This document shows, in pieces, positions 6,609 to 42,759 of a stretch of 64,000 bases of DNA. The position numbers and the translations under genes are program-made. Positions within the stretch are counted from its first letter, which is position 1, and every line of letters begins with the position of its first letter. Source of the DNA: a virus; the IMG/VR virus record IMGVR_UViG_3300020156_000448, positions 61,054 to 125,053 of that record; one strand, given 5' to 3'. The notes below the pieces were generated by a model, which ran no database searches, had not been told where the DNA came from, and saw only the letters and a list, made by a program, of their open reading frames with translations.

Positions 6609-7763
6609 CTAAGCCTCGCTTAAAAGTCCTACTAAACTGGCGAATGAATTATCCATAATGATTTTAAGAGGAGCTTCGCCATTTAAATCAAAGAATATTT
6701 CTACGTCTTCGCCTTCAACATTGTTTAACACATCAAGAATATATTGGGTATTAGTAGCAAAACTAGCTGTTCCGTTTATGCTCGCTGGAATCATCTCGTC
6801 GCCGCCTCCAACTGCTCCATAATCACCGAAACGAGCATCTGATCCAAGAGAAAGAGTTTGTTCATCTCCATTGAAAATCCATGAAGAAACAGGGGAAGAG
6901 TTCATGGTATTCTTTAGTGCAGATACAAGATCATCTTTGTTGACTGTAGCTCCGTTTGCGTACTCTCTATTGATATTAGTTTTCCAGTCAGGATAATTGG
7001 CAGCTAACTGGCGAGAATAAAACTTCATCATGGACTGCTTTACCATAATAATTTTTCCATCAGTAGCTATTTCTAAAGGGTTAATATCATCAAGCAGAGA
7101 TATCATTTCTTTTGCCCAAGCATTAAAGAAATAAAATACTCCATCTCCTTCCAAATAGCCAGGGGTGCCAATAGTGAAAGCAATTCTCTCTTCGTCACTT
7201 CCTACAGCGCATAATTCTCCATTAAAAGATTCAATTTTAATATTAGTTAACTCTAACTGATCTTGTTGCTTATAGGTAGCAAACTCGGTTTTCTTAATTA
7301 CCTTTTTAAAAAAAGAAGGCTCCATCTTTACGACTTTAATTTCATCGGAGAATCTAAAATCCCCCATTAAGAAACCCTCTACATTACTGCAAGGAACCCA
7401 ATAAGAAAGCTTCCTGCCATTACCTTTAGCAGCCTCAAGAACAAAGCGCTGGCTTATCAATTCCCCTTGTTGCTTCTCTTCAGCAAGAGAAACTTCAATG
7501 TTGGTATCGGGATAGCCTTTTATAAGATCAACCAGCTTTTGTCCCAAAACGCAACAAGAACCATTTTCCTCAATGGTAAGATAATTACCTATAGGTATAG
7601 TATAGTCTATCTTAATGTTCATATCGGTTGCTACCATGCGAAGACCTTCTGCGGTAGCTTCATGATAGATAAACCTGTAAATGCTATCTTCAGTACGGTG
7701 GAGTGCTCGACGCATTTTGTCGAGCACTCCACTATATACTGACTTATCAATGATAAACCGCAT
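6609..7763 (-). CDS. dnaN: DNA polymerase III beta sliding clamp
   Basis: MRFII, LRMVATDM, AVGSDEERIA, SRQLAANYPDW and NTQYILDVL; 384 aa. Confidence 0.9.
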   Translation of the reverse strand: MRFIIDKSVYSGVLDKMRRALHRTEDSIYRFIYHEATAEGLRMVATDMNIKIDYTIPIGNYLTIEENGSCCVLGQKLVDLIKGYPDTNIEVSLAEEKQQGELISQRFVLEAAKGNGRKLSYWVPCSNVEGFLMGDFRFSDEIKVVKMEPSFFKKVIKKTEFATYKQQDQLELTNIKIESFNGELCAVGSDEERIAFTIGTPGYLEGDGVFYFFNAWAKEMISLLDDINPLEIATDGKIIMVKQSMMKFYSRQLAANYPDWKTNINREYANGATVNKDDLVSALKNTMNSSPVSSWIFNGDEQTLSLGSDARFGDYGAVGGGDEMIPASINGTASFATNTQYILDVLNNVEGEDVEIFFDLNGEAPLKIIMDNSFASLVGLLSEA

Positions 7764-31495: not shown

Positions 31496-32311
31496 TTAAT
31501 TCGTCACTTTCAACAAAGAACTTAATCTTTGTCTTTGTCTTTCTTCGAAGCTGGTGCTTTTATCCTTTAAAATTTGATCAATTCTGTCTTTTATTGGTTG
31601 TGCGCCGTATTGCATTACAAATTGATGAGGATCGTATCCATCTGGTAATAAAACATAATCGGAGTCAAAAGTTATGTCATGTTTTGCCCTATTTAAAAAC
31701 TTCAGTCCGGCTGAATCATGATCAAAAAGAAAGATTGCCAGATCACAATATCTCAATAATTTATTAACGTGATGTTCAGTAAGTGCTGATCCCAGTACTC
31801 CCACGACATTTTTAATACCGTGCTGGTATAAAATAGCAACGTCAAATTGACCTTCCGCTATGATTACATAGTTTTCTTTGATGATGTGCTTTTTAGCCAC
31901 GTTAAGTCCGAATAAGAAGCTACTCTTAATAAATGAGCTATGAAGTTTGGATTTATGATAGTCTTTCTTTTCAGAACCGTCTGCCGACCTCCAAGAAACA
32001 ATTCTGTTTGTCTCTGTTTCTAGAACGTATTTATTACCTATTGCGTCTTGGTAATCATAAGTTATCATTCTTCCAGAAAGAGCCACAGGAACATTGTATT
32101 CATCTATGAGAGGAAATATAATCCTGCGCTCCCATCTCTTATCCTTATAACCGTCTTCTCCTGTAATAGGACCAAGACACCATCCCACTCTATAATCTGA
32201 GATGGTGTCTTGACTAATACCGCGAGAAGCTAGATAATCTCTTGCTACTAAGCCATCTTCCGACTGAAGTTGATATTGAAAAGATTCAACTAATTTAGCA
32301 AGATTTTCCAT
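31496..32311 (-). CDS. dnaG: DNA primase catalytic core (TOPRIM) lacking the zinc-binding and helicase-binding domains
   Basis: YLASRGIS, RIIFPL, SGR, LFGL, AEGQFDV, GSALT, FDHDSAG and PDGYDP; no N-terminal CHC2 finger. Confidence 0.9.
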   Translation of the reverse strand: MENLAKLVESFQYQLQSEDGLVARDYLASRGISQDTISDYRVGWCLGPITGEDGYKDKRWERRIIFPLIDEYNVPVALSGRMITYDYQDAIGNKYVLETETNRIVSWRSADGSEKKDYHKSKLHSSFIKSSFLFGLNVAKKHIIKENYVIIAEGQFDVAILYQHGIKNVVGVLGSALTEHHVNKLLRYCDLAIFLFDHDSAGLKFLNRAKHDITFDSDYVLLPDGYDPHQFVMQYGAQPIKDRIDQILKDKSTSFEERQRQRLSSLLKVTN

Positions 32312-35447: not shown

Positions 35448-35897
35448 TTAACCAATGTCAGGTATTCTGTTCATGACGCCATGTACTGGCAAATTTGCTT
35501 CAATTTCTAAAGCTGGATCAGAAACTTCACCATACTTTATCATCTGAGACAGATCATTTGGTACACTATTATTATTCTGAATTGGAAGTGGGATTCCTTC
35601 TTCCTGAGAATAATTAGGTTGATTTAAATTATACTGCACATTATTGATATTATTAATGTTATCTGGTACATGACCCTGAATACTAGAAACAATATTGAAA
35701 TCAATTTCTGGTAAATTTAACGATCTTAAAACATCCTGAGCATCACTAATACACTCTTGTTTTACCTGCTGAAAAACATCCTGATGAGCAGCGTGATCTG
35801 GTTGGTTAACATCAACTTTTGCTTCTGTCCAAACCTCAAACCACTCATATCTTCTTGGAGCTACACGAAGTCTAACTCCCTTTGTAATCTGCGCCAT
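35448..35897 (-). CDS. Hypothetical protein
   Basis: 149-aa ORF; GAGG Shine-Dalgarno. Confidence 0.6.
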   Translation of the reverse strand: MAQITKGVRLRVAPRRYEWFEVWTEAKVDVNQPDHAAHQDVFQQVKQECISDAQDVLRSLNLPEIDFNIVSSIQGHVPDNINNINNVQYNLNQPNYSQEEGIPLPIQNNNSVPNDLSQMIKYGEVSDPALEIEANLPVHGVMNRIPDIG

Positions 35898-35899
35898 TT

Positions 35900-36181
35900 T
35901 TAATCCTCGTCTTTTGCTTCCATTGGGAATATTAAGATATTACCCTTGTGACCATCTCTAATTAAATGATCTATTAAATTTGCTTCACATTTCATCATAA
36001 CTGATGCATGATCTGTTGCTCTGATTGGATTAGAACTAGGGACAGCATCTAAGTAGATAAAAGCCCAGCCATTTTCATCTCTCTTTATATCTTCCTTATT
36101 TCCTCTGATCTTAAATCCAAATTTCTCTGAGTGTGAATTGGCGTATTTTAGCGTCAATTTCATCAATTCATCGTCTGTCAT
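35900..36181 (-). CDS. Hypothetical protein
   Basis: 93-aa ORF; start overlaps the dnaE-C stop. Confidence 0.6.
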   Translation of the reverse strand: MTDDELMKLTLKYANSHSEKFGFKIRGNKEDIKRDENGWAFIYLDAVPSSNPIRATDHASVMMKCEANLIDHLIRDGHKGNILIFPMEAKDED

Positions 36182-38082
36182 TAAAATACACCTTTTAATC
36201 TTGGAATGGTCTTATTTTTAGATGGACCTTTACCCATTCTATCCTTAATACCTTGGCATCTAATGAACTCTGATTTTAATTCTGGTTCGCTCCCAAAGCA
36301 ATTAAGTGCGCCTGCGTTAATAAGACATTCCACAACACTCTTAGAGACTTTATTACTAGTTGTTGCTCCAAGATAAAAATCTTGAAATGTATTATACGGC
36401 TGATTGGCACAAATTTCTCTCTGTGCTTCAGTGCCCACACCTTTAATACAACTTAAAGGCTTGCGAATTTTATCATCTTCGATAGTGTATACATTTTTGC
36501 TATGATTAATATCAACAGGAAGAAACTTGATGTTAAAATATCTTGTAGCTTCGCGCTCATAATACTCTAAGTTTTCATCACAGTCTGCACCACCGCTATT
36601 TAATTCCACAGTTAACAACGCGCTATAGAACTCTCTAGGAAACAAAGCTTTAAGAAATGCAGTTGCATAAGCCAAATAAGCATAAGCCGCTGAGTGAGCC
36701 TTATTAAAGCAATAATTACCAAACTTCTCAAACTGATCCCAAAGGTTCGACACTTCCGCATCTCCCATGAGACCTGTTTCTTTAGCTCTTGCCCTGAACT
36801 TAGCCGCCATTTCAGGAAGTTTTTTAACGTCCTTTTTACCAATAATTTTTCTGAATTCATCGGCTTCTGTCTTGGTAAATCCAGCCAGAATTTGACACGT
36901 CTTCATTAACTGTTCCTGATAAATAAACAATCCTAATGTGCTCTTTAGAATATCATATAGAGCAGGATGAGGATAATTAATAGCACTTGCATTACTCTTT
37001 CTTTCAATAAAGAAGTTATGATAGCCGTTTGCTAGCGGTCCTGGTCTATAAAGAGCCACACCAGCTACTAAATCATCAAAGCATGTGGGCTGTAATTCCA
37101 TAAGGAACTTTGTAAAACCATATTTTTCAAACTGAAAAATACCTTTTGTAATTCCCTTGGCAATTAGATTAATAACACTAGGCGCAGTCTGTGTATCAAA
37201 AGGATTGAGATTCCAAATATCTATATCCTTGCCGTGACGCGCCTTAATCATATTAAGAGCCATATGAACAACCCTAAGCGTCTTTACGCCAAGAGTATCC
37301 ATCTTCATACATCCAAGCTCTTCACAGTCATGCATATCGAATTGTGTGATATAAATAACTTTCTTGGTGTCTTCTTCTTTCGAAAAGTGAAGAGGAATTA
37401 ATTCGGCAATTGGCTCGTCGGTAATAATAATTCCGCCTGCGTGCTTGCCTGTACTGGCTTTAATGCCAAATATCTTCTTAGCATCTACAAGAATGTTATC
37501 TAATTCAGGATGGGCTTGGCGATATGCGGCAAAATTAGCCTCATTAATAGCAGCGTCAAAGTCTTCGTTTAATCTGGTATCTACCAGCTTGGATAAGAAT
37601 ATAGCTGTATCAGAAATACTCATCACTTCACCATTTTCTGAGGGAAGCTGAAGACCATGATACTTAGATGCGTTTTGAAGAGCACCTTTTACTTTCCAGT
37701 TGCCAAATGTACCAATTGGAGCAACGTGATCAGCCCCGTATTTTTGAGTAATATATGCCTGAACTGGAGTAATGTCTTCAAAGTCAGTATCAATATCAGG
37801 AGGACTATATCTTACAAGATAATAATCATCTCTTAAATTAAGAGGTTTATCAAAATCACAACATACATCTGTTACTCCTATTAAATAGGACAAATAACAA
37901 TTAGCTTTATTAACACTGCCTTTAAAGTTTTGATTTACTAGCTTTCCTAGCGTCCTATAAAGACTCGGATGCTGCTCAAAGAAGTCCATCTCCTCACGCA
38001 GTCTCATCATTTCGACTGAATTCGGGTCAGTGTTGGCTAATCTTGTTCTATCTATCAGACTAAATAATTTTTGTCTATCCAT
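36181..38082 (-). CDS. dnaE: DNA polymerase III alpha, C-terminal half (palm/thumb/fingers/HhH)
   Basis: PDIDTDF (catalytic Asps), GKHAGG, TQFD, KMDTLG, GIFQFE, ALYRPGP, IYQEQ, FNKAHSAAY and IKGVG. Confidence 0.93.
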   Translation of the reverse strand: MDRQKLFSLIDRTRLANTDPNSVEMMRLREEMDFFEQHPSLYRTLGKLVNQNFKGSVNKANCYLSYLIGVTDVCCDFDKPLNLRDDYYLVRYSPPDIDTDFEDITPVQAYITQKYGADHVAPIGTFGNWKVKGALQNASKYHGLQLPSENGEVMSISDTAIFLSKLVDTRLNEDFDAAINEANFAAYRQAHPELDNILVDAKKIFGIKASTGKHAGGIIITDEPIAELIPLHFSKEEDTKKVIYITQFDMHDCEELGCMKMDTLGVKTLRVVHMALNMIKARHGKDIDIWNLNPFDTQTAPSVINLIAKGITKGIFQFEKYGFTKFLMELQPTCFDDLVAGVALYRPGPLANGYHNFFIERKSNASAINYPHPALYDILKSTLGLFIYQEQLMKTCQILAGFTKTEADEFRKIIGKKDVKKLPEMAAKFRARAKETGLMGDAEVSNLWDQFEKFGNYCFNKAHSAAYAYLAYATAFLKALFPREFYSALLTVELNSGGADCDENLEYYEREATRYFNIKFLPVDINHSKNVYTIEDDKIRKPLSCIKGVGTEAQREICANQPYNTFQDFYLGATTSNKVSKSVVECLINAGALNCFGSEPELKSEFIRCQGIKDRMGKGPSKNKTIPRLKGVF

Positions 38083-38092
38083 TTATATGCAC

Positions 38093-38557
38093 CTAAAACT
38101 CCGTAGGCGGTAACGCCTTAACTTCTTCTTCTTTTTCTTCTAGTTTAACTAGGTTTAAGCCAATAGTTTTTGCTGCTTCTAACACTTTTTCGTCCACGCG
38201 ATAAGCATTTCTAAAAAACACTGTCTTAATTCCAGAGTTAGCTATTAATTTAAAACATCCGTAGCAAGGAAATGCTGTTACGTACATTTCGGCACCTTCT
38301 ATTTTGACGCCATTACGAGCGGCTTGAATTAAACTATTTGCTTCTGCATGGACAGTGCGGACGCAGTGCCCATCAACCATTTGGTGATCCGCATCATCGC
38401 AATGGGGCGTGCCTTTTATGCTACCATTATAGCCTGTAGATAAAATAGTTTTATCTCTTACAACCACAGCGCCAACATGAAGACGGTTACAGGTTGCTCT
38501 GGTGGAAACCTGTTCGGCAATCTGCATAAAATATTCATTCCAAGAAACTCTAGACAT
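38093..38557 (-). CDS. dCMP deaminase (ComEB-like)
   Basis: RATCNRLHVGA, GYNG, HAEANS and PCYGC. Confidence 0.93.
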   Translation of the reverse strand: MSRVSWNEYFMQIAEQVSTRATCNRLHVGAVVVRDKTILSTGYNGSIKGTPHCDDADHQMVDGHCVRTVHAEANSLIQAARNGVKIEGAEMYVTAFPCYGCFKLIANSGIKTVFFRNAYRVDEKVLEAAKTIGLNLVKLEEKEEEVKALPPTEF

Positions 38558-38723
38558 TCAAATTTACTCCAAAAAATTTCATAACTTTTCTTATCGAAAT
38601 TTGAATTCTATAAGAAAATGAACGTTTTCTTTCATCCTCTTCAATTTGATCCAGAATCCTCTGATAAGCAGTGGCGCGGCTTCCTGGAAGAGTGAATTCG
38701 GGAATAATAATTATTGGCTTCAT
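38550..38723 (-). CDS. 57-aa small ORF missed by the ORF track (MKPIIIIPEFTLPGSRATAYQRILDQIEED...)
   Basis: Its ATG overlaps the dnaE-N stop (ATGA) and its stop overlaps the start of the deaminase; it fills the gap exactly. Confidence 0.6.
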   Translation of the reverse strand: MKPIIIIPEFTLPGSRATAYQRILDQIEEDERKRSFSYRIQISIRKVMKFFGVNLNV

Positions 38724-40057
38724 TCTACAAAGTCTCTCTCTTCCAAAACAAAGCCTTTTTCAGCAGCTAAGAAGCGCTCAAAGTCCAAGTCATACAAAAT
38801 AGGATCGATATTAGTAATACCTAGGCAAAACAGCATTAAAGAGCCTGCACCAGAACCTCTTCCTGGTCCCACAAAGATGTTATTTTTCCAAGCCCACTGT
38901 ATATAATCTCTAACCACAATAAAGTATTTGGAAAACTCTGTCTTTGTTACAACAGATAGCTCGTAAGTTAATCTATCCTTATATCTTTGGTCATTGTGGT
39001 ATCCCTTTTGAATGAGACCTTTCCACGATAAGAATGTGAGATACTGACCGTTCTTGTCCAAATGTCCAATAGTAGCTTTCCACGCATCCCTAAATTTACA
39101 GAATGCTTCGTAATCATCTTGGGTCTCTAGGTCAAAGTTAGGCAAGCGAGCTTTTGCTCTTGCTCCCAAGGGAATATCTACATTACACTTTTCTGCAATC
39201 GCCATAGTTTCTTCAATTGCAAATTGCAAACCCCCGAAGGTGGAATAGATTTCATCTGGAGTCTTTAAATAAAACTCGTTAAAATCACCATCCCTGCCTT
39301 CATTATTGTTGGCTGTGGTTAGGTCTTTACCAAACTGGCGAGCCTTCTTAATCTGCTGAGCCTGAAAGTCATCCTTACAGATATAGTGAGTGTCGTTTGT
39401 TAGCACCGAGCGTATACCAAGCTCTTGAGAAAGTCTAATGGTATTTTCCAGCACCATGCGCTGCTTTACGGCAAAATCACCTTGACCGCCTTGCAGGACG
39501 CCTTGGTTGTCCATAGCATGAAACATTAACTCTAGGTAATAATCGTCCTTGAAACGTTCTTTATATTTAGAGGCAACCATTTTAGCCATATTATAGCCTT
39601 CGTTGCCCTGATGTTTCAAGAATGATTCCGCTATTTCTCCCTTAATGCAGGCAGAACTAACAATGAGACCATCGCCATATTTATCCAACAAATCAAAGTC
39701 TAGGCGTGGTCGCGCATAATAGCGCTCTTGCTCATAGGATACTGTGGCAAGTTTTTTAAGATTCTTCCAACCTTGATCATTTTTTGCTATTAATAGCAAA
39801 TGGTTATTCGATCTCGAAGATTTATCGAGAGAATTATTGCACACATAAGCTTCCATGCCCAAGATAGGTTTAATACCTTCTTCTTGGCAAGCTTTATAGA
39901 ATTTAATCGAACCAGATAGCGTTCCATGGTCTGTTAATGCCAAAGCTGGCATACCCATGTTTTTCGCTGTTTTTACAAAATCTTTAATTTTACACAATCC
40001 GTCAATCAATGAATATTCGGAATGATTGTGTAATGAAACGTACATCTTATCTGACAT
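38720..40057 (-). CDS. dnaE: DNA polymerase III alpha, N-terminal half (PHP domain plus the GRGS segment)
   Basis: LHNHSEYSLIDG, TDHG, GMEAY, HLLL, SACIKGE, TNDTHY, GPGRGSGAGS, LGITNIDP and FERFL, followed shortly by a stop. Confidence 0.93.
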   Translation of the reverse strand: MSDKMYVSLHNHSEYSLIDGLCKIKDFVKTAKNMGMPALALTDHGTLSGSIKFYKACQEEGIKPILGMEAYVCNNSLDKSSRSNNHLLLIAKNDQGWKNLKKLATVSYEQERYYARPRLDFDLLDKYGDGLIVSSACIKGEIAESFLKHQGNEGYNMAKMVASKYKERFKDDYYLELMFHAMDNQGVLQGGQGDFAVKQRMVLENTIRLSQELGIRSVLTNDTHYICKDDFQAQQIKKARQFGKDLTTANNNEGRDGDFNEFYLKTPDEIYSTFGGLQFAIEETMAIAEKCNVDIPLGARAKARLPNFDLETQDDYEAFCKFRDAWKATIGHLDKNGQYLTFLSWKGLIQKGYHNDQRYKDRLTYELSVVTKTEFSKYFIVVRDYIQWAWKNNIFVGPGRGSGAGSLMLFCLGITNIDPILYDLDFERFLAAEKGFVLEERDFVE

Positions 40058-40079
40058 TTGTCACCTTGCATTATATAAA

Positions 40080-40099
40080 GGTGGGGATTTCTCCCCACC
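40080..40099 (-). terminator. GC-rich hairpin after the def-like gene
   Basis: GGTGGGGA-TTTC-TCCCCACC, followed by TTTAT on the minus strand. Confidence 0.6.
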
Positions 40100-40111
40100 C
40101 ATCTTTATTTA

Positions 40112-40726
40112 TTAGATCACTAGATTGGGCTTGTCAGTAGGCTCTGGATTCTTACCAACCTCATGGAGAGTTTTGCCGTGGATATGATCGTATAGATGAT
40201 GGATTACAATTGCACCCAAATCTGTAAATCTCTTCTCTCTCGTCTTGCCTTCCATGTCCTTATATGTAACTTTAATAACCAAACAACGCTTAGTCTTAAA
40301 GCTCAAATTAGGAATTGAAGGACAAGATTCCACTACTTCTCTTGTATACTTTGATGGTTTAATTTCTTTAATAGAGGGATTAACCATTAAAGTGGATTTA
40401 GGCTTGGTAGCAAGTAGAAACATTTGTAAGTCATGACCTACCTGCTGGGCTGAAACTCCGTAAGATTCACGCATGGCTAAATACTGTTCCATTTTACGCA
40501 AACAAATATCTGCTTCAGCCATATTTCCAGATGTTACGCGACGACCTTTAGTGGTCATGATCGGATCATCGTATTCTACAATTAACTTGGTTTCAAATGT
40601 CATTGATTCTGTAAGATCAATTTCTGAATCAATAACACTGGACAAATTCGCTAATGAGGAACCACTTGGCAAAATTGCATGATGATGGTGATCACAACCC
40701 TCTGAACAAGAGTGCGTATCGCTCAT
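40112..40726 (-). CDS. def: Peptide deformylase-like protein with degenerate catalytic motifs
   Basis: YGVSAQQVG (motif 1 GxGxAAxQ), MVNP, ESCPSIP (motif 2 EGCLS) and IHHLYDHIHG (motif 3 QHExDH, with Glu replaced by Leu). Confidence 0.8.
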   Translation of the reverse strand: MSDTHSCSEGCDHHHHAILPSGSSLANLSSVIDSEIDLTESMTFETKLIVEYDDPIMTTKGRRVTSGNMAEADICLRKMEQYLAMRESYGVSAQQVGHDLQMFLLATKPKSTLMVNPSIKEIKPSKYTREVVESCPSIPNLSFKTKRCLVIKVTYKDMEGKTREKRFTDLGAIVIHHLYDHIHGKTLHEVGKNPEPTDKPNLVI

Positions 40727-41595: not shown

Positions 41596-42759
41596 TTATT
41601 GGTAGCATCGACAATGTTTGTAGATAAAATCACTTAGCATGCTATTAAATGAATCTTTATCTTCAGAAGGACTATGGCTAAAATAAACCAAAGCCTCGTG
41701 TTTCCCAATTTTGTGTGGTCTATTTCTCCCGACAAAGCTGGCACAATCTATGTTTTCATTTTCGATGAAGTATTTAATGGTCTGTGATCCAATTAGCATA
41801 ATTGCATCAGGTTTTAGAATTTCAATCCGCTTATTAAGCCATTTGTTTTTACAAAGAATAGCCTCTTTGAATGGATTATTTTGATTGGAATAACAATTAA
41901 ATATATAATCTATCCAAACATTTTCTTTTTCAATGCCTGACTTGGAAAGATAGTCAATTAACTCTTCCCTGCCTTTGCCTCCCATCCCCAAAGCATCTTC
42001 TTCTGAGAGCGGAGAATCAAGCACAAACATAACATTAGATACATGGCTACCAAAGCCCGTTACTACACTCTTGCATCCGTAACGAAGACTACAATCGGTA
42101 CATGTTTTATTATCTAATCGAAGCTCTTCTATAGTCTTTTTTTTCTCATCCAAAGCTGATTCCAGAGTCTTGATGCTGGGCAATATTTCATTTTTAATTC
42201 TAGAAAGTTGCCTTTGATCCTGATCTACAATCGCTTGATCTAATACTTGATATATACGCCCTATCATGGCATCGATCTTAGGGGAGTTAAATTTTCTAGA
42301 AATTCTTTTTCCCTCAACCGAAACTAGATAATTAATATTGTTAGCATCAGGTTCACTATAGTCGTTAAGACACAAGGTTCTCAAAAAATCTTCGTATGCC
42401 ATTTCTGACAAAGAGACATTTGAAATGTCGTTTTTTAATCCTAATTTTGCTGCAAAAAAACCTACAGCTTGACCCCACGTGCTAAAGCCTTTATACTCTT
42501 TGGCAAATGCAATTACATCCCCGCCTCTATGACACTGACCAAAACAATACCAAGATTGGTCATATGTATAAACACGAAAACTAGGAGTGTTTTCTTTATG
42601 AAGCGGACAGCAGCAAGAGAGCATTTCTGCTCCAGACTTATATCCCGCACTAGATAAATGAACACCTTCTTGTTGAAGAAAGTCTACAAGCGAAACGCGC
42701 TTGCGGATTTCGTCCGCAAGCCGTTTCGCCTCTATGTAGTGAAGTTTATTTTCCTGCAT
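41596..42759 (-). CDS. Primase CHC2 zinc-binding domain fused to a degenerate family-4 uracil-DNA glycosylase-like domain
   Basis: CPLHKENTPSF...WYCFGQCHRGGDVIAF; C-terminal CTDCSL...VVTGFGS...VMFVLDSP...FNC...C..WL...IEILKPDAIMLIG...HSPS. Confidence 0.85.
   Translation of the reverse strand: MQENKLHYIEAKRLADEIRKRVSLVDFLQQEGVHLSSAGYKSGAEMLSCCCPLHKENTPSFRVYTYDQSWYCFGQCHRGGDVIAFAKEYKGFSTWGQAVGFFAAKLGLKNDISNVSLSEMAYEDFLRTLCLNDYSEPDANNINYLVSVEGKRISRKFNSPKIDAMIGRIYQVLDQAIVDQDQRQLSRIKNEILPSIKTLESALDEKKKTIEELRLDNKTCTDCSLRYGCKSVVTGFGSHVSNVMFVLDSPLSEEDALGMGGKGREELIDYLSKSGIEKENVWIDYIFNCYSNQNNPFKEAILCKNKWLNKRIEILKPDAIMLIGSQTIKYFIENENIDCASFVGRNRPHKIGKHEALVYFSHSPSEDKDSFNSMLSDFIYKHCRCYQ

Follow-up and report, generated by a model that had tools for sequence, protein, structure and literature searches.

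DnaE-type polymerases and other phage enzymes encoded in pieces have been described before. In T4-like jumbo phages, the catalytic module of a minimal Pol III alpha is divided over two proteins, of which the N-terminal one binds NTP and the C-terminal one Mg2+ and template; it is described as lacking the other Pol III domains, its halves are encoded at distant loci, and the phages have a family B polymerase as well (Iyer et al., 2021, PMC7824862). In the so-called fractured genes of metagenomes, split inteins interrupt dnaE and other replication genes, the parts of which flank a free-standing homing endonuclease (Dassa et al., 2009, PMC2677866), and split DnaE with split inteins is also found in cyanobacteria (PMC2677866). 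Genes without inteins have also been left in pieces by homing endonucleases, as in Aeh1 nrdA/mobE, phage 25 gene 43A/43B and T4 genes 39/60, and the B-family polymerase pieces 43A and 43B of phage 25 are reported to co-purify and polymerise (PMC2988022). The dnaE considered here is also in two pieces. It is carried by an uncultured soil phage, in the right-hand 64 kb (the window) of a 125-kb IMG/VR record, IMGVR_UViG_3300020156_000448, which is classed by IMG/VR as a provirus and estimated by CheckV to be 76% complete. We consider it probable, though by no means certain, that the replicative DnaE-type polymerase of this phage consists of two proteins, the N-half and the C-half, which would associate non-covalently and assemble their active site in trans.

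The two halves of DnaE and the genes between them

An earlier note on this DNA, written from its letters alone, had described a dnaE split exactly between FERFL and PDID, and the gene calls, Pfam and alignments to Taq Pol III agree with it on both the coordinates and the sequence of the break. The N-half gene (38720-40057, minus strand) encodes 445 aa, comprising a PHP domain (Pfam, E 1.3e-47) and the palm's N-terminal portion (positions 2-98 of the DNA_pol3_alpha profile, E 1.3e-30), the latter with GPGRGSGAGS (residues 397-406; 38840-38869), the nucleotide-binding Gly/Ser loop of a Pol-beta-type palm, and with FERFL. A 15-aa tail, AAEKGFVLEERDFVE (residues 431-445; 38723-38767), follows FERFL and is without counterpart in intact DnaE. 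The C-half gene (36181-38082, minus strand) encodes 633 aa, beginning with a leader (residues 1-94; 37801-38082) and continuing with the catalytic strand PDIDTDF (residues 95-101; 37780-37800), the rest of the palm, the thumb, the fingers (PF17657, E 1.3e-47) and an HhH part (HHH_6, PF14579, E 1.2e-18). Two of the three catalytic aspartates lie on PDIDTDF, and the third is D262 (37297-37299). The C-half matches positions 68-260 of DNA_pol3_alpha, and the overlap of the two halves on this profile is 31 positions. No OB-fold or tau-binding C-terminus was detected by Pfam in the C-half. Residues 6-458 of Taq Pol III are aligned by the N-half and 427-953 by the C-half, with the domains following one another as in single-chain DnaE and 30-34% identity of the halves to solved structures (Taq 2hpi/3e0d, E. 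coli 2hnh, M. tuberculosis 7pu7) over the aligned parts.

Nine PHP positions of the N-half that we take to be metal ligands (H10, H12, D19, H44, E69, H86, C137, D222, and H224) all align with Taq residues; seven of the nine do not vary within the family, and at least 90% of 62 sequences retain H10, H12 and D19. The palm residues G397, G399, R400, G401, S402 and G405 are invariant in 9/9 members of the N-half family, and alignment A3, of 85 sequences, shows no variation at D96, D98, D100, K260 and D262 of the C-half. The motifs of a Pol-beta-type palm are found, but on two polypeptides, with GPGRGS on the N-half and the aspartates on the C-half, such that the active site would form across the subunit interface. 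A distance of 1.3 kb, with stops and two intervening genes, separates the two DnaE open reading frames (ORFs), which do not make up a single continuous polypeptide. The N-half would contribute the PHP domain, likely a proofreading nuclease, and the nucleotide-binding GPGRGS strand-loop-helix of the palm, and the C-half would contribute the PDIDTDF aspartate strand and the third aspartate, along with thumb, fingers and the DNA-binding HhH part.

The C-terminal residues of the N-half, ...FERFLAAEKGFVLEERDFVE, are followed by TGA AGC CAA TAA, and the obstacle to read-through that the earlier note had pointed out is therefore present in the sequence. It had also placed a 57-aa ORF and a dCMP deaminase gene between the halves, and both are found there, forming with dnaE a run of four tightly packed minus-strand genes in the order N-half, 57-aa ORF, deaminase and C-half. 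The ATG of the 57-aa ORF (38550-38723) overlaps the TGA of the N-half (ATGA), and this ORF is in turn overlapped by 8 nt by the gene for the dCMP/cytidine deaminase (38093-38557; 154 aa; dCMP_cyt_deam_1, PF00383, E 3.1e-26), the translation of which has HAE and PCxxC motifs. The ATG of the C-half is preceded by a 10-nt spacer, with AGGTG 7 nt upstream of the ATG. No terminator-like site was found on the coding strand between the halves, a promoter scan gave no enrichment over shuffled sequences (22 sites vs. a mean of 17.8), and no Rfam family matched over 35800-40400 at E<=1. The 57-aa ORF is an orphan, with no Pfam or PHROGs family and with itself as the sole match among 5.8 billion proteins; since it has neither family nor homologue, a role as endonuclease remnant or assembly factor is unsupported.

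The claim that the break lacks an intein also holds. Intein and Hint families gave no match to either half at E<=0.01 nor, at E<=10, to the leader and the final 40 residues of the N-half, and the same scan does detect inteins in the relatives P0124, P0127, P0269, L005 and L064. As regards misassembly, which the earlier note had raised, the region 36000-40200 is reproduced with 0 differences by a 95-kb contig from a second assembler (soil-metagenome run, word depth 16.8), although this contig possibly derives from the same sample and hence is not independent confirmation.

The C-half leader, its recurrence and its proposed spread

Judging by profile comparison, the palm segment has a diverged second copy in the leader, one that has lost GRGS, with ~75 palm residues being present twice, once in canonical and once in degenerate form. 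The earlier note had claimed that some 94 leader residues echo the palm of the N-half without GRGS, and this stands at the profile level but not pairwise, as the two overlapping segments did not match in BLASTP (E 7.6) and the leader alone matched no Pfam family at E<=10. A first test of five leaders against nine N-half ends gave an hhalign E of 1.2e-4, and 21 leaders matched 40 intact DnaE proteins with a probability of 93.6% and E 2.1e-7, colinearly (leader columns 5-75 to intact columns 296-379), and the N-half family with 91.8% and E 7.5e-7. By tblastn, residues 2-633 of the C-half align to a single 1106-aa DnaE, that of Streptomyces phage PumpkinSpice (gp81), from about codon 318. By eye, the leader (RLxxEL...NKxNC-YLSYLIGVT) retains three helices, namely RLxxE(L/M), the next helix, and the [SC]-YLxYLxG(I/V)T helix, and is without the strand and the Gly-rich GPGRGS loop, being about 9-13 residues shorter there. 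GRGS is lost in every leader, and the family has G-x-x-N-[KRH]-x-N-[SC] instead. Identity to the three closest relatives is 41-48% in the leader vs. 45-54% in the core, and to distant relatives 15-26% vs. 32-37%.

The leader type is confined to the N-termini of C-halves, and no intact DnaE among 1552 sequences scored carries a leader-type segment. A hidden Markov model (HMM) of the leader outscores the canonical HMM (>20 bits) in 28 of the 1552, with all 28 matches starting within residue 40 and seven of these sequences being independent of the building of the leader HMM. None of the 393 sequences in which the canonical segment exceeds 60 bits scores higher on the leader HMM, which does cross-hit the canonical segment of intact DnaE at the same place with ~15-21 bits among the matches listed.

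The same break recurs among relatives. C-halves of like length and start are found in P0002 (638 aa, 52% identical), in P0003, which has 791 aa and an intein elsewhere, and in P0004 (632 aa). Eight other N-halves, 418-463 aa long and with 36-62% identity, each stop a few residues past FERFL (P0122, P0123, P0125, P0126 and P0128 at 51-62%; P0129, P0130 and P0164 at 36-38%). On a profile of 40 intact DnaE proteins, 9/9 N-halves end at position 391-392 and 4/5 C-halves start at 362-364, with the C-half of this phage aligning from 391 (envelope from residue 55). The split, as far as these sequences can tell, is maintained and not decaying. A tail of the pattern AAE(K/E/H)G-h-h-h-E-x-(R/K/Q)-(D/H)-(L/F) ends six of the nine N-halves, those of the phage itself and of five close relatives (a count that takes in P0126 with its SAENG variant), and tails resembling it by eye occur in L004, L005 and L006.

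The earlier note had proposed a survey of homologues for the same break as a check on it, and such a survey found further cases. A profile search of 1.84 billion representatives provided the best 150 matches, which with the five query-family proteins made 151 proteins examined, and 22 of these are leader-type C-halves. A motif rule had flagged 25, of which four were set aside, P0269 as the C-part of an intein, P0274 and P0285 as truncated fragments, and P0335 for its near-canonical ARGS loop before the catalytic strand; P0298, missed by the rule, was added later. Among 61 IMG/VR loci fetched with the N-half family, nine are broken at the same site (L004, L005, L006, L043, L044, L050, L051, L055, and L064), and five of the nine have a palm-type leader (L004, L005, L043, L044, and L055). 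L006 ends before its C-half, and L050, L051 and L064 have other ends. Neither a DNA-level search of phage records nor a peptide-pattern scan of viral contigs for the C-half alone gave a match. Phage DnaE is also broken elsewhere, at profile position ~634/639 and at ~750, in L013:5953-9757 and L052:5896-9952. Many N-terminal DnaE proteins of 515-608 aa, with PHP and part of the palm, occur in ENA and Logan assemblies (P0131-P0240), some on 50-190 kb contigs; these may be contig-end fragments or another class of split.

Endonuclease genes occupy the gap between the halves in several relatives, a LAGLIDADG endonuclease gene in L043/L044 and a GIY-YIG+NUMOD3 gene on the other strand in L050/L051, such that the gap behaves as an insertion slot used by endonuclease genes. 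Elsewhere the gap holds two N6/N4 DNA methylases and AAA_28 pieces (L004), five ORFs, one with a BrnA-like domain (L055, a 416-kb phage), or a D12 methylase (L064). In L050 (5992-11001) and L051, the tail is 45 aa long and the leader, of 38 aa, is unlike the palm-type leader, and Pfam found no Hint domain at these ends. The pieces of L064:3751-9307 carry intein parts (Intein_splicing, E 2e-10, and a weak Hom_end_hint match), and its last piece begins, by eye, with ...THN|T before PDIDSD. Inteins also lie within the nucleotide-binding loop, with P0124 having a mini-intein between GRG and S, P0127 ending with an N-intein there, and P0269 beginning with a C-intein followed by S. On the 147-kb viral contig of L005 (5983-12345), DnaE is in four pieces: an N-part ending in GRG plus N-intein, a TnsA/Vsr-like endonuclease gene (E 3e-5), a 90-aa ORF consisting of a C-intein and a stretch reading S...FERFL-like...tail, the leader-bearing C-half, a LAGLIDADG gene, and the last piece from about profile position 750. 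Splicing in L005 would rebuild an N-half such as the one described here and leave the C-half separate, which suggests that selection keeps the canonical segment on the N-half.

As to the origin of the leader, L044 was, on identity to its intact relative L030, split recently. With L030 its N-half shares 81% identity up to ...FFRFID (L030 residue 415) and its C-half 73% from residue 390 onward, so that L030 residues 390-415 are represented twice. The leader of L044, however, reaches 30.7 bits against a leader HMM that draws only on unrelated clades (A and B) vs. 6.5 bits on the canonical HMM, and the segment of its N-half and of its intact relatives scores 105-119 bits on the canonical HMM. For the leaders of L004, L055 and L005, the scores on the leader and canonical HMMs are 42.4 vs. 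12.6, 25.6 vs. 15.1 and 56.1 vs. 2.9 bits, respectively, and clade A leaders match those of clade B with E 1.3e-13. Since L044 is 73-81% identical to intact relatives and yet has a foreign type of leader, the split probably spreads as a cassette, and since the leader of L043/L044 belongs to a separate leader family and is not copied from their own palm, import of a cassette is likelier there than duplication in place. Of the partial duplication that the earlier note had put forward as the origin, the overlap is real, but for L043/L044 import is the better explanation.

On a tree of the polymerase core (HMM columns 395-880; L004, L064 and P0359 dropped for having too few columns), the leader-type state needs five changes, with well-supported branches forcing at least four, and the intact P0276 falls inside clade A. 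A single clade for all 25 leader-type C-halves was rejected by the approximately unbiased (AU) test (difference in log-likelihood 552.8, p-AU 1.2e-30). The leader-type group was named after a first FastTree and yet is defined by the leader, which the tree columns exclude. The simplest reading of these comparisons is that the leader type is an old lineage of the palm segment in its own right, which moves with the interruption, and we infer that it has most likely spread by co-conversion, with an endonuclease-bearing split allele repairing a cut intact allele. The arrangement in this phage would accordingly have been left behind when a mobile element split the gene just ahead of the catalytic strand, at a site used by homing endonucleases, and the endonuclease slot would now be occupied by the orphan ORF and the dCMP deaminase.

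A bolder reading, possible but put forward only tentatively, is that the tail, gap and leader together form a portable, intein-free gene-splitting cassette which has homed into unrelated phage dnaE genes, with the leader as a stand-in or clamp. A homing endonuclease, or its replacement, would then travel with a stop, a restart and a degenerate nucleotide-binding palm segment, and the leader would either cover the palm of the C-half until the true GRGS segment docks or clamp the pieces together afterwards. Selfish DNA could in this way enter the active site of a polymerase that the phage cannot do without, and leave it working.

Proposed assembly of the active site and alternative explanations

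Modelling favours an active site that is completed by the N-half. In a complex model of the N-half with residues 1-555 of the C-half, computed from alignments of our own, ipSAE (an interface score) was 0.88 vs. 0.00 for the best of three controls, a mark reached by 116/157 solved complexes and 2/215 mismatched pairs; at least 91% of contacts are common to the three runs, and the partner has a predicted local distance difference test score (pLDDT) of at least 86. The earlier note had suggested multimer modelling of which copy completes the palm, and in the model it is the canonical segment of the N-half that sits at the canonical place beside PDIDTDF, as a trans-assembled active site requires. 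N-half F395/V396, on the strand before GPGRGS, touch C-half F101, 269 and 273, N-half 385-389 touch the C-half helix 107-111, and PHP residues 47-52 and 101-105 touch C-half 230-256. The modelled interface takes in N-half residues 394-405 and 427-445 and leader residues 38-71 and 83-92. In AF2 (AlphaFold2) models of the single chains, the N-half (pLDDT 87.8) is disordered (pLDDT <50) at tail residues 433-436, 439-441 and 443-445, and the C-half (pLDDT 92.3, predicted template-modelling score 0.82) has leader helices at 3-8, 23-37, 40-50 and 63-67 (block pLDDT 82-93) and is disordered at 84-90. The confident interface of the complex model takes in these disordered segments (C 84-90 and those inside N 433-445), and the leader and tail would most likely serve the docking or folding of the pieces and not catalysis. 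The C-half model matches E. coli, Mycobacterium tuberculosis and Taq Pol III with Z 23-27 from about residue 86, VIA-align giving Z 26.9 for E. coli 2hnh (model 86-614 to chain 392-910). Going by their first and last aligned residues, the alignments start at different places (model residue 86 for 2hnh, 23 for 3e0d, and 40 for 2hqa), with some but not all extending into the leader, and disagree on the overlay of the leader.

The earlier note had offered two readings, of which the trans heterodimer is the better supported, through the GPGRGS of the N-halves, L005, the GRGS-less leaders and the complex model, and the self-sufficient C-half less so. A C-half of the latter kind, in which NKxN[SC] of the leader replaces GRGS and the N-half is a detachable PHP proofreading subunit with its palm fragment as a docking handle, seems to us unlikely, yet several observations favour it and weigh against assembly in trans: the leader is conserved and is confidently folded in the model of the C-half alone, a family alignment of five sequences has N58, K59 and N61 unchanged throughout, the helix is capped by Ser/Cys, with Ser kept in at least 90% of 85 sequences, and the 3e0d structural alignment, one of several, overlays the leader on the canonical palm place (model 23-627 to chain 377-978). 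Further points count against the favoured explanation. Intact DnaE structures have been solved, such that the complex model may recall the single-chain fold, and its pass shows likeness, not binding. No homing endonuclease gene lies in the gap of this phage, and with the record incomplete another polymerase could lie outside it. A single clade for A and B alone stays unrejected (p-AU 0.106), so that firm evidence for independent acquisition comes mainly from L043/L044 and the FastTree count of six changes does not amount to six events. Self-sufficiency of the C-half, on the other hand, leaves the strict conservation of GPGRGS in 9/9 N-halves unexplained, as well as the split intein in L005, which rebuilds that motif. 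The leader is shortened exactly at the strand and Gly-rich loop, no intact DnaE scored has a leader-type segment in place of the canonical one, and the strand set beside PDIDTDF in the complex model is that of the N-half and not the leader.

A broken, non-functional gene, with the phage using the polymerase of its host or one encoded in the missing quarter of its genome, would be compatible with a record that is 76% complete, but is highly improbable given that each half is an open frame of full length in which no catalytic residue is missing, that the division into two pieces persists across several lineages and in relatives at identities as low as 36-52%, and that the phage has its own clamp, clamp loader, helicase and primase. 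We give still less credence to a covalent joining of the halves, whether by RNA splicing, translational bypass or a cryptic or degenerate split intein made of tail and leader. Relatives do use split inteins at or near the site (at GRG|S in L005, P0127 and P0269, and also in the pieces of L064), but besides the empty intein scans the leader is homologous to the palm and not to Hint, no Cys, Ser or Thr follows Asn at the junction, and joining would duplicate the ~75 palm residues. Splicing or bypass would also have to contend with the lack of an Rfam intron, a gap that holds two intact, translationally coupled genes, and the in-frame TAA two codons past the TGA. That two different dnaE alleles were fused by the assembler is conceivable for a metagenome assembly, but can practically be discounted, as the second contig is identical (with the caveat on its sample given above) and the same architecture is found on many unrelated contigs. 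Two proteins forming one active site in trans hence remains the explanation that we favour.

Besides dnaE, the window encodes a beta-clamp-like processivity factor (6609-7763), a clamp loader, DnaB, a loader-like protein, RecA, a RecG-like helicase, a Cas4-like nuclease, ribonucleotide reductase and a primase. Scans of the 125-kb record gave no PolA, PolB (PF00136) or DnaQ-type family, which leaves the split DnaE as its only detectable replicase and the PHP domain as its only candidate proofreader. The primase, too, is encoded by two genes, lying about 9 kb apart: in one (41596-42759, minus strand) a CHC2 zinc-ribbon is fused to a UDG-superfamily domain (Pfam, E 7e-17 and 9.5e-6), and the other (31496-32311, minus strand) encodes a primase core of 271 aa (PHROGs 'DNA primase', E 3e-39). 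Directly upstream of the N-half gene is one for a peptide deformylase (40112-40726, minus strand; Pfam, E 3.4e-26), with a perfect 8-bp GC-rich stem-loop between the two at 40080-40099. The C-half ends in ...IPRLKGVF (36181-36210), and relatives end in ...IPKLRGVL and ...APRMNGVL; as the phage has a clamp gene, one may speculate that this conserved peptide binds the clamp.

The break falls at the subdomain boundary at which the minimal Pol III alpha of jumbo phages is divided, but here the enzyme is of full size, with PHP, fingers and HhH, its halves are encoded close together, no other polymerase was found, and the C-half begins with a palm-copy leader. As in the fractured genes, the halves are neighbours on one strand in phage-like DNA and relatives have endonuclease genes in the gap, with L005 combining both kinds of break, yet this phage has neither intein parts nor an endonuclease gene there. 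The intein-less cases in T4-like phages likewise concern an essential enzyme that is cut at a functionally critical place into two polypeptides which have to reassemble, and intact relatives exist here as well (L030 and P0276). The polymerase of phage 25 belongs to a different family, however, and the break described here carries an overlapping, diverged copy of the flanking segment, of a type that recurs in lineages whose cores do not form one clade. Two surveys of viral and bacterial C-family polymerases (PMC3201878 and PMC12926913) mention no such split in the passages searched, and searches of the open literature gave no account of a full-size phage DnaE that is cut there, lacks an intein and has an overlapping palm copy.

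If our explanation is right, this would be a natural case of a replicative C-family polymerase with a nucleotidyltransferase core made of two chains, the nucleotide-binding loop being on one protein and the metal-binding strand on the other. It bears on the survival of essential genes invaded by selfish endonuclease genes in the absence of an intein or intron, on the stabilisation of gene fission by an overlapping, diverged copy of the junction, and on split-polymerase design. Halves of this kind are widespread in uncultured phages and are easily annotated as partial genes or pseudogenes.

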